Positions 34,235-60,544 of a stretch of 64,000 nt of DNA are shown piece after piece (within the stretch, counting starts at the first letter, position 1; each line of letters opens with the position of its first letter). The notes beneath the pieces are model-generated. The model had not been told where the DNA came from. It searched no databases and saw only the letters and a list, made by a program, of their open reading frames with translations. Position numbers and translations under genes: made by a program. Source of the stretch: Candidatus Cloacimonadota bacterium (GTDB lineage Bacteria > Cloacimonadota > Cloacimonadia > Cloacimonadales > Cloacimonadaceae); the NCBI GenBank assembly GCA_023392795.1, contig JAEWNJ010000115.1, positions 10,952 to 74,951 on the forward strand, given 5' to 3'.

Positions 34235-35376
34235 TTCGTTAAGGATCCTGTTCTTCCAAGGCGGATTCCAAAATCTCCGTCTGCAGAGTGCATGGGCAAT
34301 CCAATGCAGCGGATTCTAAGCAGGCAGCCATAGTTGTCACTTTGCCATCCGGCACCCTTAACAGATCTATGGGTTCCTGTGTTTGCGCCATGTGGGTTTG
34401 TGTAGCTGCCGTAACTTCCTGTGCTGTAAATATCCCAACACCATTCATACACATTCCCCGTCATATCAAACAAACCCAGTTCATTGGGCGCTTTGTTCCC
34501 AACTGGGTGAACCCCATGATCAGAGTGCCCGGGGGGCATAAGGTATGAATTTTGATCATACCAGGCAACATCATCCAGGATGTTACTCCCGCTGTATGTA
34601 TATCCAAGGGATGAAGCCCCACCCCTGCCGGCATACAGCCACTCCAATTCGCTAAGTAGCCTGTAGCCATTAACATCCCAGTTACATTGGATGAGCGTAT
34701 GATTGCTGTTCTGTAAATTCCAACCTACTGGCCAATCATCCACATCTGTTCCGTAAGCCTCGTAAGAATAGCAAGGTGTGAATCCCTCCAGCGCACTTCT
34801 GCGGTTGCAATACTCTATTGCCTTGTACCAGTCCACATTATACACGGGAAAATCTGGTCCCGTATTGTAGCCATGCGAGGGATTCTCACGCATGACATAT
34901 TCGTAACTGCCTTGAGTAACCTCATACTTGCTAACATAGTAGTCTGACAGTGTATAGTAGTTGCCATCGACAAAAATTTCCCCAGCTGGGATATATACAA
35001 AATTGCTGTCGACATTATAAGTACCTGTTGCAATTACTCGAAACAAGTATGAAGTACCATCAAGTATGTAATTTTCCAATCCTGCGTCCCATTCGATATG
35101 CTTGTTCTCTCCCGGCATGACTCCATTACCGATATCACCATACAAAAGGCTACGTGTAGGGATCAGATTGAAATCGATGCCCCCATTGCTGGATAATGCG
35201 AGACTTACGGTGCAACTATCCATGAAGTTCAGATCATAATAGATATCAATAATCTTGCTACCATCAGTGCGCTGAGAGGCCTCAACGTTGAATACGACAG
35301 GAGCCTGTGCGTTCAACATGGCACCGAAAATCCAGAATAGTATGGGGAGCATGCTGTACATTATGTGTCTCTTCAT
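34231..35376 (-). CDS. secreted protein with FGE-sulfatase (SUMF1/C-type-lectin-fold) domain
   Basis: Signal peptide. YVSKYEVTQGSYEYVM, VAWYDQNS, NELGLFDMTGNVYEWCWD and RSVKGAGW are hallmark FGE-sulfatase motifs. Confidence 0.75.
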   Translation of the reverse strand: MKRHIMYSMLPILFWIFGAMLNAQAPVVFNVEASQRTDGSKIIDIYYDLNFMDSCTVSLALSSNGGIDFNLIPTRSLLYGDIGNGVMPGENKHIEWDAGLENYILDGTSYLFRVIATGTYNVDSNFVYIPAGEIFVDGNYYTLSDYYVSKYEVTQGSYEYVMRENPSHGYNTGPDFPVYNVDWYKAIEYCNRRSALEGFTPCYSYEAYGTDVDDWPVGWNLQNSNHTLIQCNWDVNGYRLLSELEWLYAGRGGASSLGYTYSGSNILDDVAWYDQNSYLMPPGHSDHGVHPVGNKAPNELGLFDMTGNVYEWCWDIYSTGSYGSYTNPHGANTGTHRSVKGAGWQSDNYGCLLRIRCIGLPMHSADGDFGIRLGRTGSLTN

Positions 35377-36122
35377 CGCTGTAACCTCAAAGCCTTATCC
35401 TGTCGGGTCATTTCCTGAGGCTCCATGAGAATCGGATCGCAAAGGGGAGAGGGTACATCCGGGACGTAGGCATACACTTTGTAAAAGAGTCTGTCCCAAT
35501 GTTCCAAGGCTTTAATGTGAACACATGAGCAACCTTCCGTAACGTTCTCCAAAAGGTAGAAACTACTATCGTCGGTGGGAGACATCTCGCTGTAGTATAC
35601 CTTATACCCCTGCACCTGTATGTCCTGTCCAAAGCTTCCCTGGTTTACTGGTGTCCAGGAGATTTGCATATCGGTGGGATTAATAGCATGGAGTACCATA
35701 TCCTGTGGGGGAAGCGGAATCAAGGGACCTATGATGAAGCTTTCAGAGCTGGTGCACGCACCAACATTGCCAAAGCTGTCGTGGGTCACAACCTTGATCA
35801 TTGCATTTTCTATCGTCTCATTAGGACTCGTCCATACATAGCTGTTACCTTCACCATATCCTAAGACTATTGGGGAATAAACATCACCTCCGTCAACAGA
35901 TAGATAAATATCTGTGCTATTTTCTGCCAGATTCTGTTCAGTGACATTCCATACGATTTCCAAGGGGAAACCCTGCTGTATAAAACCTTGATCAAGGGGA
36001 TACAATATCTGAACTACAGGGTCTTTGGTATCGCCTATGAACACATTTGAGTGGGCAAACCCGGTCAAAGCAGACAAGCCAGTCAGTGCCAGCAAAAATG
36101 TAACTGTTAACGTACCTTTCAT
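35373..36122 (-). CDS. secreted protein with Ig-like and fibronectin type III-like domains
   Basis: Signal peptide. FN3-like segment PPQDMVLHAINPTDMQISWTPV...GYKVYY. 4-nt overlap with the downstream FGE-domain gene. Confidence 0.5.
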   Translation of the reverse strand: MKGTLTVTFLLALTGLSALTGFAHSNVFIGDTKDPVVQILYPLDQGFIQQGFPLEIVWNVTEQNLAENSTDIYLSVDGGDVYSPIVLGYGEGNSYVWTSPNETIENAMIKVVTHDSFGNVGACTSSESFIIGPLIPLPPQDMVLHAINPTDMQISWTPVNQGSFGQDIQVQGYKVYYSEMSPTDDSSFYLLENVTEGCSCVHIKALEHWDRLFYKVYAYVPDVPSPLCDPILMEPQEMTRQDKALRLQR

Positions 36123-36378
36123 GCATATCCTCTTCTACTATTTCCTATATACCACCAGTCAAACATATCAGTATTATCTGTCAAGAACTAATTTTGATGG
36201 CTTCTCCTGCCAGGATTCACACAAAAGTGAGCAGGACTGGTCTTTGACCCCTTCATACCATGTTTGAAGATTCAATCCTGGTCCCATCAGCAAGGATACT
36301 GCATGTGAGTGGTGAGTGTTCCGGCAAACGATGTAGATCTAATCGGGATTGCAGAGACTCACTGATACTTTATGCACT

Positions 36379-36477
36379 CTTCTGGCTCACTCGCAACCAT
36401 CAAGCCTCTTGGACTCCTCCCACGTGGGAGGGAAGAGGAATGCGGGAGAGTGGAAAGTGGCCAGAAAGCCAGCAGAT
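36379..36477. repeat. 99-nt structured element, copy A (inverted relative to copy B at 59319-59417)
   Basis: Gap-free 99-nt alignment to the reverse complement of copy B, 74/99 identical by hand count. Three helices are kept by compensatory changes (see findings). Confidence 0.75.
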
Positions 36478-36505
36478 AGTACTGCTTTTGGGAAAACAAA
36501 TTGCC

Positions 36506-37225
36506 TCACAAAGCGTTTTGAATGTGCTCTTTTAGAATTCTCTGGCTGTGTTCATCCAGCCGGTTATCCACCTGAAAACTTGCCACAAAGAGCCCATCCT
36601 TCATCACTTCGATGCGGTCGGAAAGCTTGATGGCTTCGTCGATATCGTGGGTAACCAGGATGATGGCCAGCGACAGATTGTGAACCACTTCACCCAGCCA
36701 GTCCTGTAACCCGCTGCGAGTGATGGCATCGAGGTTTGCCAGGGGTTCATCCAACAGCAGCACTTTACTGCCGGTCATGTAGGTGCGTGCCAGAGCAGCC
36801 CTTTGGCGCAAGCCACCGGAGAGTTGCCAGGGAAGATGATCGGCATAGCTTTCTAGACCGAAAACCGGCAGCAATCTGGCTGCTTTCTCTCTTTCGATGT
36901 GGATGTTCTTGCCTTGCACTCTGACGGGAAGCAGAATGTTATCGATCGTCTTCAGCCAGGGGAAGAGGAGATCATCCTGGGGCATGTATCCCAGGATGCC
37001 CGCCTTGCCGGTTACCATTTGAGAATCGTAAAAGATGTCACCGCTGTCGGGAAGACTAATTCCCGACAGCAGTTCCAATAACGTGGATTTTCCACAGCCG
37101 CTGGCACCCACAATACTGATGAATTCATTTTCTTCCAGCTTCAGATTGATGCCATGCAGCACTTTGCTGAGTTCACCTTTGAAGAGGAATGATTTGTGGA
37201 TGTCTCTGGCTTCGAGGATGGCCAT
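36506..37225 (-). CDS. ABC transporter ATP-binding protein (NitT/TauT-type)
   Basis: Walker A GASGCGKSTLL, signature LSGGLRQR and Walker B LLLDEPLANLD. ATG 37225 overlaps the upstream stop (TAATG). The track start 37321 lies inside the upstream gene. Confidence 0.85.
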   Translation of the reverse strand: MAILEARDIHKSFLFKGELSKVLHGINLKLEENEFISIVGASGCGKSTLLELLSGISLPDSGDIFYDSQMVTGKAGILGYMPQDDLLFPWLKTIDNILLPVRVQGKNIHIEREKAARLLPVFGLESYADHLPWQLSGGLRQRAALARTYMTGSKVLLLDEPLANLDAITRSGLQDWLGEVVHNLSLAIILVTHDIDEAIKLSDRIEVMKDGLFVASFQVDNRLDEHSQRILKEHIQNAL

Positions 37226-38205
37226 TAGTTTCCCAGATACTTGTTTGTATAGGCGTTTTCTATGGAGATGGGATTGTTGATCAGCTTTTCCTGGTCCATC
37301 CAATTGGCGAAGTTGGACCAAACATCGCGATCCTGAAAACCCCAGTATGCAGCATCATTTTGGTACTCTTTAGCCAAATAGTTCATGCTCAGTTTCACTT
37401 GTTCATAATCCAGTTCGGGTACGTTTTTGATCAGGATATCAGCCGCTTTGGCAGGCTCAGCGATGCAATACTCGTAGCCCTTTTTCACTGCGGTCATAAA
37501 CTTTTTGGTAAGCTCCTCATTATCGGCCAGGAACTTCTCGCTGCTGATGATCACCGGCGTGTAGTAGTCAAAGATGGGGTTCAGGTCGCGCAGGGGGATG
37601 TAGTCAATCTCTACGCCACGATGATCTGTAGCCACTCCATCCCAGCCGTAATAAATCCATTCGAAATCGGCATCTTTCCCGATGGTGGAGAAGAAATCAT
37701 AGACTCCGGAGATCACCTGAACTTTATTGAAGTCAGCGCCATTACGCTCCATCACGTTCTTCAAGATGGCGATCTCGGAAGGGCTGTCCCAACTGCCATA
37801 ACGTTTCCCCTCAAAATCTTTGGGGCTCTTGATGTTTGCCGATTTTAGGGACGCAAATCCTGAGGTATTGTGTTGAATCACCGCTGCGATAGAAATCAGC
37901 GGGATACCTTCACTGCGGGCGCGGATCACGTTTTCCTGATAACTGACGCCAAAGTGACTTTTCCCGGTGGCGACGATCTGATCGGTGATATTCTGACCAG
38001 GTTGTTGGATCTGGACATCCAGGCCTTGCTCGGTGAAATGGCCAAGTTCTTTAGCCACGTACAGGCCGGTATGATTGGTATTTGGGGTCCAATCCAGAGT
38101 GATGCTAACTTTCTGCAGTTCCTGCTGATTCTTCTTGCACGAGGGTAAAAGTACCAGAAGCAGGATGGCGATTAAGAACAGAGTTTTCTTCATTTTTGTC
38201 TCCAT
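37225..38205 (-). CDS. NMT1/THI5-like ABC substrate-binding lipoprotein
   Basis: Lipobox LLPSCKK. The ITLDWTPNTNHTGLYVAKELGHF motif is typical of NMT1/ThiY-like binding proteins. Confidence 0.7.
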   Translation of the reverse strand: METKMKKTLFLIAILLLVLLPSCKKNQQELQKVSITLDWTPNTNHTGLYVAKELGHFTEQGLDVQIQQPGQNITDQIVATGKSHFGVSYQENVIRARSEGIPLISIAAVIQHNTSGFASLKSANIKSPKDFEGKRYGSWDSPSEIAILKNVMERNGADFNKVQVISGVYDFFSTIGKDADFEWIYYGWDGVATDHRGVEIDYIPLRDLNPIFDYYTPVIISSEKFLADNEELTKKFMTAVKKGYEYCIAEPAKAADILIKNVPELDYEQVKLSMNYLAKEYQNDAAYWGFQDRDVWSNFANWMDQEKLINNPISIENAYTNKYLGN

Positions 38206-53508: not shown

Positions 53509-53593
53509 GCCGTTCGCCCCTACAGTGGGTGATGTGATGAAGGGATTCAAACAGGCGCTACGGCGAGCGCCGGTACATTCGCGGCGCAGCCGC

Positions 53594-58825: not shown

Positions 58826-59318
58826 AGCTGATGTGTATTGATCATGGTTTGATCTCCTTTTTTTTGTTCCGGTTCATCCCGGTATTTTTGCAAGAGAATG
58901 ATCTGTTCATCAACACCGATTCAGTTTCAATAACACACGGGTTCAGATTGCAGCTTCGGCACTTTTATAAAGCTGACGACATTTTTCAGACCTATTTGGT
59001 AATGTCAAGAGATATTTTGTCGTCTTCTGAAACATCCCAAAAATTCAGGTCATTTCAGAGTGCATGGGAAAGTAGAATAATTGGTACTAAAAGAATTATA
59101 GTGTGACAGAACACTCCCTGATGCGCAACTTTGCGTGATTATGCCAATGAATTGGACTGCTGATCTCCCTTGACACATAATCACTCGTTAATTAGCTGCA
59201 TATTTATGAAAAAGAACTGGCTCATACCTGATTACCTCCATCATGACTAGGCTTACCAAGCCAAAAGTATGGCGGGATTACCCGGATGGGATTCGGAGGA
59301 TTTGACCTGCGGTAACCG

Positions 59319-59417
59319 TCTGCTGGTTCACAGGCCACCTGCAACTCAGTTGGAACTCTCCTGCATCTCACGTGAGAGGAGTCCAGGAGGCTTGCTAGTT
59401 GCGAGCGAACCAGAAGA
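59319..59417. repeat. 99-nt structured element, copy B
   Basis: See copy A. Helices TCTGCTGGTTC/GAACCAGAAGA, CTCCT/AGGAG and the palindrome TCTCACGTGAGA. Confidence 0.75.
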
Positions 59418-59482
59418 GATGAACAGCTCTTCATCCTCTTCTTTTTCTTGACCACAAAGCCACTGTTGTGGAGATTGATCTG

Positions 59483-60544
59483 ATGAAGAGAATCATCCAC
59501 ATTGATATGGACGCTTATTTCGCTGCGATCGAGATCCGCGAGAATCCCTCGCTAAAGGGTAAATGCGTGATCGTGGGCGGCTCGCCGCACAGCCGGGGTG
59601 TGGTTTCCACCTGCTCCTATGAGGCGCGTAAGTACGGCGTGCACAGCGGGATGAGTTCATATCAGGCTTGGAAGCTTTGTCCCCAGGGAGTTTTCGTGCA
59701 TAGCAGCTTCCATCTCTATAAAGAGATCAGTCGCCAGGTGAGAGATATCTTCTATCAGGTGACCGAATTGGTGGAGCCCATGAGCTTGGATGAGGCCTAT
59801 CTGGATGTGACTGAAAACAAGCTTGGGGAGAGCGATCCAGCCGTCATCGCCAGATGGATAAAGGATGAAGTATTTCGGCAAACTCAGCTAACCTGCTCTG
59901 CCGGGGTTTCTTACAACAAGTTTTTGGCGAAGATCGGATCGGACATGAACAAACCGGACGGACTTACTGTGATCAATCCCGAGGATGTGCAGAATATTCT
60001 CTTTCACCTGCCCATCGGTAAGTTTCACGGCATCGGCAAAGTGACGGCAGCCCGTATGAAAAAGATGGGTATTCACAATGGGGAAGACCTCTATCAGCGA
60101 GACATGAGGGAACTCATCAAACACTTTGGCAAGGCTGGATTGTTTTATTACAATGTGGTGCGGGGTATCGATGAACGGGAATTGCACACCAGTTGGGAAC
60201 CGAAATCAATCTCTTGTGAAAGTACTTTTTACGAGGATATCGGGGATATGCAGGAACTGCTGGAACAGCTTCGACGCCTTTGCGATAAACTGGCTACCCG
60301 CATGAGTTTCAAAAACATCCAGGGGCAAAACCTGGTCTTGAAGCTGAAGTATGACAATTTTGAGTTGATCACCCGCAGTATGAGTTTACCGGAAATGACC
60401 AATGAACGGGAAATCCTGTATCAATACGCCGAGCAATTGATGGTGGGAAACTGGGACGCAGAGCGTAAGGTGCGTTTGATCGGGATCGGAGTTGGCAAGC
60501 TGGACAATCGCAGCGACAATGAGCAGCTGACTTTCCTCCCCTGA
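59483..60544 (+). CDS. dinB: DNA polymerase IV (Y-family)
   Basis: MKRIIHIDMDAYFAAIE, SLDEAYLDV and a little-finger region. ATG 59483 is preferred over the GTG at 59468. Confidence 0.9.
   Translation: MKRIIHIDMDAYFAAIEIRENPSLKGKCVIVGGSPHSRGVVSTCSYEARKYGVHSGMSSYQAWKLCPQGVFVHSSFHLYKEISRQVRDIFYQVTELVEPMSLDEAYLDVTENKLGESDPAVIARWIKDEVFRQTQLTCSAGVSYNKFLAKIGSDMNKPDGLTVINPEDVQNILFHLPIGKFHGIGKVTAARMKKMGIHNGEDLYQRDMRELIKHFGKAGLFYYNVVRGIDERELHTSWEPKSISCESTFYEDIGDMQELLEQLRRLCDKLATRMSFKNIQGQNLVLKLKYDNFELITRSMSLPEMTNEREILYQYAEQLMVGNWDAERKVRLIGIGVGKLDNRSDNEQLTFLP

Follow-up and report, generated by a model that had tools for sequence, protein, structure and literature searches.

Two hairpin elements in a Candidatus Cloacimonadota genome are probably old, diverged copies of a non-autonomous intergenic repeat family

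The window analysed here, a 64,000-nt stretch of one contig (C64) of a Candidatus Cloacimonadota bacterium, carries two related hairpin-forming elements that we call copy A and copy B. Copy A (36374..36478, family orientation on the + strand of the window; nhmmer match at C64:47325-47429) lies between two genes whose products were assigned with Pfam, 29 nt past the stop codon of an ABC-ATPase gene (37321..36506, –) and 256 nt 5′ of a gene for an fn3-domain protein (36122..35373, –), and it is antisense to both. Copy B (59318..59419, family orientation –; nhmmer match at C64:70269-70370) lies 64 nt 5′ of the ATG of a dinB-like DNA polymerase IV gene (59483..60544, +; Pfam IMS, IMS_C and IMS_HHH), which is part of the context and falls outside the element. 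Between copy B and dinB is a stretch with a –35-like TTGAC that is conserved with the nearest species (genome G005). The exact DinB protein is also encoded on other metagenome contigs; one independent contig with an identical DinB protein (L108, ENA ERZ28597312 scaffold_888) ends at the first base of copy B.

On its other side, copy B is preceded by the 5′ remnant of a SAM-dependent methyltransferase-like gene (59206..59301, +), detected by blastn against contig C49 of G005. The remnant has an in-frame stop at 59248-59250, and its homology stops 17 nt before copy B. In the nearest species the gene is intact and its ORF runs on into a GCGAG methyltransferase motif; the methyltransferase-like function that we ascribe to the remnant would follow from this motif. 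At this site 304 nt here replace 89 nt in the nearest species, and the remnant and copy B together make up most of the 304 nt. This replacement rules out a clean insertion of copy B. Since the remnant ends 17 nt before it, copy B marks the junction of a deletion or rearrangement 5′ of dinB. The intergenic region of copy A had no alignable counterpart in the sister species except for one G005 contig (C88:687-1487), which is 100% identical to window positions 35950-36750 although dinB of G005 is only 90% identical. Judged from these identities, the contig is probably a contaminant or the product of a recent transfer and provides no independent ortholog of copy A.

A first-pass annotation made from the sequence of the window had described A and B as a 99-nt element present twice in inverted orientation. 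The similarity was borne out with a shift of one nucleotide: the reverse complement of 36378-36476 aligns without gaps to 59319-59417 with 74 of 99 positions identical, whereas 36379-36477, the coordinates first given, yields only 23 of 99. When copy B was slid over the window on both strands, the mean was 24.7 identities (sd 4.3) and the top unrelated match had 43, so the similarity of A and B is real and far above chance. The three helices proposed for the two copies were found as described. Copy B matches its own reverse complement at 58 of 99 positions and copy A on the same strand at 62 of 99; the element is thus a quasi-palindrome. Folded on either strand, both copies gave hairpins of roughly –39 to –40 kcal/mol (z –1.8 to –2.4 against dinucleotide shuffles), and copy A in its family orientation folds at –40.1 kcal/mol (z –2.4 to –2.9). 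The element is therefore a hairpin former and a homologous repeat, as first proposed, and not a chance resemblance.

The element is, however, not confined to two places. BLAST of either copy against the whole genome (2.30 Mb, 148 contigs, 93.6% complete) returned dozens of matches on many contigs. BLAST alone gave 40 matches, and an iterated nhmmer search gave 57 loci, of which ~50 are convincing. To orient the copies, unambiguous main-clade members served as the seed, and each copy was aligned globally to the consensus. Orientation was unambiguous for 37 copies, leaving ~13 diverged ones that include A and B; for copy A the global alignment to the family consensus scored 80 in the orientation given above against 43 in the other.

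The shared unit is ~108 bp long and has the form TGTCCATTC-CTGGCTT…AAGCCAG-TGAAGCCC (full family consensus TGTCCATTC-CTGGCTTCCCTCGCTGTTCCAACCCTCTTGCCACCCTCCTGCGTGCCACGGAAGAGGAATCCGGGTGGGTGGCAAGTGGCCGGAAAGCCAG-TGAAGCCC). Its ends are discrete: information content reached background ~9 nt before CTGG and ~8 nt after CCAG, and all-against-all BLAST with ±300-nt flanks bounded the shared unit at about –3 to +110, except where other repeats lie beside it. An alignment of 46 copies (A2) was nearly gapless. A quick maximum-likelihood tree separated an older 12-copy clade, which contains A and B, from a 34-copy main clade that is specific to this species. The 36 best-scoring copies among the 37 of clear orientation had a mean pairwise identity of 76% and were 74–95% identical to their own consensus. 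Conservation was highest at the centre of the element, in the blocks CTCTTGCCACCCTC, GGAAGAGGA and GAGTGGCAAGTGG, and the paired columns were more conserved than the unpaired stretch of the left arm. One arm is strongly CT-rich and the other GA-rich. Copy A was 74% identical to C74:934, 73% to C6:4568 and 72% to copy B (105 compared columns). Its identity to the main consensus was 64%, compared with 52% for copy B, the most diverged member of the family. In the tree A and B are sisters with weak support (SH-aLRT 89). Both carry a central CACGTG, where most copies have CGTGCCACG.

All copies lie outside long ORFs and are intergenic. Where long ORFs overlapped a copy, their starts were over-extended, and the short overlapping ones were spurious ORFs over the elements; the peptide SLLDSSHV common to ORFs 36349-36630(+) and 59222-59500(–) is, as first suggested, a side effect of the repeat. 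Flanking genes occurred in all four arrangements (15, 9, 6 and 5 copies). The oriented copies showed no orientation rule and no fixed distance to gene starts or stops, which rules out a cis-regulatory 5′-UTR element, and no gene class was found to be linked to the copies. No T-run follows the hairpin on its 3′ side, and an intrinsic terminator is likewise ruled out. No conserved promoter or terminator signal was found at the element ends, the information content outside the unit being that of background.

Inspection of the insertion sites gave no sign of target-site duplication: the longest direct repeat between the two flanks of the same copy averaged 2.78 nt compared with 2.86 ± 0.14 nt for mismatched flanks, although in copies of this age very short duplications may have been lost to decay. 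Neither end of the element was found in the assembly outside complete copies when up to 3 mismatches were allowed, so no longer autonomous partner came to light there; MAG assemblies often lack IS elements. A blastn search of a plasmid collection gave no match. With neither a target-site duplication nor the ends of a parent IS, the element is not a classic MITE. At three copies (C21:20111, C24:38607 and C9:10881) the right flank carries a further common repeat, GTTAGGATTGCAGGCG…CCTGCAT-AAGCAGC…GCTGCTT, and the sharing of this repeat by a subset of copies indicates that the intergenic regions are BIME-like mosaics of several small hairpin families.

The consensus and most copies form a long imperfect hairpin, with a mean MFE of –40.7 kcal/mol and a mean z of –2.8 over the 46 copies, 31 of which fell below z –2. 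We tested two structures on alignment A2, the three helices of the first-pass annotation and an alternative that fits the main clade better, consisting of the outer stem CTGGCTT/AAGCCAG, the middle stem CTTGCCAC/GTGGCAAG and a 10-bp apical helix. Read from the alignment of the main clade, the CTTGCCAC/GTGGCAAG pairing lies ~5 nt off the axis of the outer and apical helices. Paired states filled 74.2% of the cells in the first structure and 84.2% in the alternative, compared with 39–53% when the partners were slid by 1–3 columns. Shuffling within columns nevertheless gave the same levels, 73.9% for the first structure (observed value reached in 163 of 500 shuffles) and 84.1% for the alternative (215 of 500). 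Pairs changed on both sides numbered 6 compared with 5.3 in shuffles for the first structure and 5 compared with 5.6 for the alternative. Pairing did not exceed that of shuffles in the 10 old-clade copies, in the 36 main copies or in all 46 together, and RNAalifold found essentially no consensus structure (–0.11 kcal/mol, 4 pairs, 0 compensatory).

A structure-free comparison led to the same result. When every left arm was combined with every right arm, own partners folded at –39.7 kcal/mol and swapped partners at –40.6 kcal/mol (permutation p = 0.94); the own partner ranked 40th of 46 for copy A and 39th for copy B. Pairing within this genome is thus fully explained by column composition, which indicates that the hairpin was inherited and is not upheld copy by copy. 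On the + strand of the family, G:T cells outnumbered A:C cells in both structures (53 vs 33 and 46 vs 20), an excess that we treat as weak because the pair positions showing each state were nearly equal in number (12 vs 11 and 9 vs 9). Rfam searches of the window, of A and B and of a main-clade copy returned nothing relevant at gathering or permissive thresholds, so the element could not be referred to a known RNA family. The one Rfam match within the window was a group II intron elsewhere than A and B; the best matches at A, B and the main-clade copy were far below threshold, with both strands matching the same generic miRNA-hairpin model.

These results bear on the compensatory differences between A and B, which the first-pass annotation took as a sign of selection on a hairpin or a dyad-symmetric site. 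Tallied on its 22 base pairs, the three double changes are present and all give Watson-Crick pairs, but there are also two single changes, both leaving the pair broken in copy B. All three doubles are transition pairs. At columns 24:106 and 58:65, which hold two of them, U:G states are common in other copies, and these changes may lie one step from a wobble state. By a rough post hoc estimate, chance would give ~0.2–0.3 compensated doubles compared with the 3 seen; this is nominally unusual, but the helices were picked on the same two sequences. The shuffle controls and the arm swap do not support selection at these two loci, and the homologues in the 46-copy alignment show no significant covariation. 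The compensated differences would instead be differences between source variants or occasional templated corrections within the quasi-palindrome, and neither origin requires a selected function at the two loci. Template switching during replication, in which one arm of the quasi-palindrome is copied from the other, is a mutagenic process established in E. coli and a possible, if rather doubtful, source of the A/B compensation as a whole. The three matched doubles against two unmatched singles, their being transitions throughout and the frequent U:G states at two of the pairs would all fit it; if such events were frequent, however, own arms should do better than shuffled arms across the family, and they do not.

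The family is sparsely represented outside this genome. A BLAST search of 40 related genomes with the consensus found no independent relative: matches occurred in two other genomes only, the best on a contig with 98% identity to this genome, the second, a weak one (E = 5e-4), in G006. A covariance model built from A2 and searched over 98 genomes of the same family (this one and 97 others) matched in 14 of the 97, representing 5 of 11 genera with its own included, at up to 9 copies per genome; the repeat is almost entirely missing from 23 sister species within the genus. Conservation beyond this genome, on which the first-pass annotation had made its reading depend in part, thus exists in the form of relatives that are patchy and multi-copy. 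Matches within the genus (G006, G008 and G010) have the old-clade ends TCTTCTGGCT…AGCCAGAAGA and much of the left arm of copy B, and the remoter ones are other long hairpins with one CT-rich and one GA-rich arm. An IS200-type tnpA near the model match in G061 proved unrelated to the hairpin.

Across genomes the arms did match. At 16 cross-genome loci, all selected and aligned by the one model, arms paired with their own partners at 79.6% compared with 62.4 ± 1.6% after shuffling (reached in 0 of 1000 shuffles). We read this as self-complementarity being a property of the variant amplified in each lineage, with the inserted copies then decaying without maintenance.

A pattern scan of one genome per species found the repeat only on four contigs of the MAG 'Spirochaetia bacterium BF4_5' (L058-L061; JAVEYV010000306, 407, 383 and 362). 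Three of these are 97–99% identical over their whole length to contigs of the present genome, which suggests that contigs of this species were mis-binned into the BF4_5 MAG. The fourth matches in the repeat only and, to judge from this, may represent a region missing from our assembly. A comparison of G006 (C241:2560-3807) with C68:7780-8410 of the present genome revealed a difference in presence: the flanks are 98.6% identical, and G006 has a family member where a different 72 nt stand here. These 72 nt may hold remnants of the element ends (CCATCTT…GCGAACCATAGA), and the case is not a clean insertion. Around a RAYT-like gene in this region, additional hairpin repeats (GGATTCGACACGTCCCGTGTCGAA, AAGCAGC…GCTGCTT) form a mosaic.

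The genome encodes three complete RAYT-like Y1/HUH genes (C95:363-1277, C89:13587-14384 and C90:14992-15699) and a fourth cut by a contig end (~8060-8410 on C68) whose ortholog in G006 is intact. The best NCBIfam model for the three was 'REP-associated tyrosine transposase', at 56–79 bits and under the 80-bit cut-off. Within the 93.6%-complete assembly no 108-bp copy flanked a RAYT-like gene at C95, C89, C90 or the C68 end. Instead, each gene is flanked by its own, different short hairpin repeats; at C95 a ~140-nt block of three hairpins occurs in direct orientation on both sides of the gene. One short REP, a family separate from the 108-bp repeat, has the stem variants GGCGGTACGGCGACCGCC and GGCGCTACGGCGAGCGCC, which differ by a matched G:C to C:G swap. 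It has ~48 matches genome-wide, one of them, GGCGCTACGGCGAGCGCC, at 53554..53571 (+) in the window (pattern search, up to 3 mismatches), and forms inverted doublets around the C89 gene (C89:13400-14850). The C89 gene and these REPs are a textbook REP/REPIN-RAYT arrangement.

This same REP connects the 108-bp repeat to a RAYT-like gene by position. The sequence GGCGGTACGGCGACCGCC-TGTACA or a remnant of it lies directly 5′ of the left end, in one orientation, at 16 of 34 main-clade copies and at none of the 12 old-clade copies. On the tree the adjacency is scattered (12 changes compared with 13.4 in shuffles). Because it is not clustered, we rejected it as evidence for a composite amplified unit; an insertion preference beside REPs, or repeated loss, fits it equally well. 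In G006 a family member on contig C241 lies 265 nt upstream of the RAYT-like gene, outside the REP modules of that gene. The REP adjacency and the G006 case keep a RAYT link open.

Public metagenomes indicate how stable the copies are. The copy A locus was present in full in at least 18 DNA metagenomes from landfill, digesters, sludge and wastewater (2018–2023) and was 98–99% covered in two more, one of them from manure. Occurrence in digesters and landfill fits a member of the Cloacimonadota. Copies C138:12538, C135:35014 and C135:42887 were present in all 8 DNA metagenomes examined, and neither an empty site nor an excision joint was found at these three loci. Metagenome contigs typically break inside the younger copies. 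The family looks old and is fixed in the species.

REPINs are ~100-nt hairpins in which two REPs stand in inverted orientation; they are extragenic, occur in many copies and are associated with RAYT genes. Compensatory changes are frequent among them, and their two ends are the most conserved part (Bertels & Rainey 2011; PMC3116915). The 108-bp element resembles them in its length of about 100 nt, its single long imperfect hairpin, its tens of strictly extragenic copies, its want of target-site duplication and its lineage-specific populations, persistent and fixed within the species, in a genome that encodes RAYT-like Y1 genes and in which many copies adjoin a bona fide REP. It departs from them in that no RAYT gene is flanked by the element, each having a short REP of its own, and in that the element is not visibly two short REP palindromes with a spacer, its halves not being short palindromes. 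The arms are strongly CT-rich and GA-rich, compensatory changes are not detectable among the copies, and conservation peaks centrally and not in two terminal 16-mers, even though the outer stem CTGGCTT/AAGCCAG is conserved. We therefore describe the element as working like a REPIN- or MITE-type repeat and do not assign it as a REPIN.

Other bacterial MITEs and palindromic intergenic repeats include the Correia elements of Neisseria, ERIC/IRU of enterobacteria, RUP of pneumococci and RPE of Rickettsia. They share with the 108-bp element a non-coding length of ~100–150 bp, inverted-repeat ends, hairpin formation, dispersal and a copy number specific to species or genus. MITEs whose origin is known share their terminal inverted repeats with a parent IS and duplicate the target site (TA, for example); the 108-bp element differs from them in having no detectable duplication and in that no IS in the assembly shares its ends. 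It behaves as a MITE/REP-type repeat, which largely agrees with an outcome that the first-pass annotation had named as contrary to its reading. BIMEs, found between the genes of enterobacteria, combine REPs with other short motifs into mosaics. Like them, the 108-bp unit often stands in mosaics, with a GGCGG-type REP to the left and different hairpin modules to the right; unlike them it also occurs alone with sharp ends and is far longer than BIME motifs.

Taken together, A and B are probably old, diverged copies of a ~108-bp imperfect-palindrome family with at least 50 members, non-autonomous repetitive DNA of REP/REPIN or MITE type. A source sequence folding into a long hairpin would have been copied to many intergenic sites, most likely by a single-strand, hairpin-dependent mechanism such as that of HUH/Y1 enzymes (RAYT or IS200-type), and the inserted copies would have drifted afterwards. 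We infer that transposition, and no other copying process, gave rise to the copies. The hairpin would have mattered at the copying step; if it was needed there, this would explain why the arms are self-complementary in each lineage and genome without being maintained in place. A Y1 enzyme would have done the copying, and the absence of target-site duplication fits the single-strand chemistry of such enzymes better than DDE transposition. Against this explanation stand the RAYT and transposase genes, none of which is flanked by the element, the lack of isolated ends, the lack of any movement seen, the maximum of conservation at the centre and the A/B doubles, which exceed their estimated chance number. 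The excess of G:T over A:C leaves some weak room for strand-specific constraint.

Such constraint would be expected if the copies were cis-acting RNA structures maintained by the host, for example 3′-UTR stabilisers or processing sites in read-through mRNAs, a role that has been proposed for some REPs. We consider this improbable. The stable folds, the greater conservation of paired columns than of the unpaired left-arm stretch, the G:T excess on the family + strand and the fixation of copies in landfill, digester, sludge and manure populations would agree with it, as would metatranscriptome contigs over copy A at a depth similar to that of the flanking genes. That depth is low, however, and the contigs are unstranded and may include DNA. 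The G:T excess occupies no more pair positions than A:C (12 vs 11), the family shows no covariation, and own arms do no better than swapped ones. The copies obey no rule of gene orientation or of distance to starts and stops, the hairpin has no T-run, copy A stands on the strand opposite to that of its operon, and copy B precedes the conserved promoter-like stretch of dinB.

About as unlikely, in our estimate, is that hairpins with CT-rich (CCTCC/CCCTC) and GA-rich (GGAGG/AAGAGG) arms form an undescribed class spread throughout this bacterial family, moved by an agent other than the RAYTs near them or kept for the host. Words such as CCTCC/CCCTC resemble the end of 16S rRNA that carries the anti-Shine-Dalgarno sequence; as RNA or as single-stranded DNA, the elements might sequester ribosome-binding-like sequences or form triplex-prone DNA. 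Selection of the hairpin in each round of copying would explain why the arms match within the variants of each genome.

Two further readings are less probable still. It is very unlikely that the copies are a family of small-RNA genes, each transcribed on its own: a stable, intergenic fold of ~108 nt with some RNA-derived contigs over copy A is what such genes would give, but conserved promoter or terminator signals at the ends, an Rfam match and covariation are all missing, the mean pairwise identity of 76% looks like neutral decay and the repeat is nearly absent from the 23 sister species of its genus. We give equally little credence to dyad-symmetric double-stranded sites at which dimer binding of a host protein (nucleoid-associated protein, gyrase or regulator, such binding being reported for BIMEs) keeps both arms, since the quasi-palindromy, the conserved central blocks and the CACGTG of A and B are countered by main-clade arms that are not mirror images, with CTTGCCAC/GTGGCAAG off axis, by the absence of CACGTG from most copies, by a length of 108 bp that far exceeds a typical operator and by the want of a link to any gene class.

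Reading A and B as members of a non-autonomous repeat family removes a false lead, as the apparent RNA-style covariation resulted from a comparison between two copies of one palindromic family. Little-studied uncultured bacteria of anaerobic digesters also gain a repeat family that is documented by its consensus, ends, copy list and covariance model. The family is useful for annotation, where the elements yield spurious ORFs, for assembly, where contigs break inside them, and for strain typing. If a link to a RAYT-type or other hairpin-dependent enzyme is true, the range of REPIN-like elements would extend beyond Proteobacteria and Cyanobacteria.
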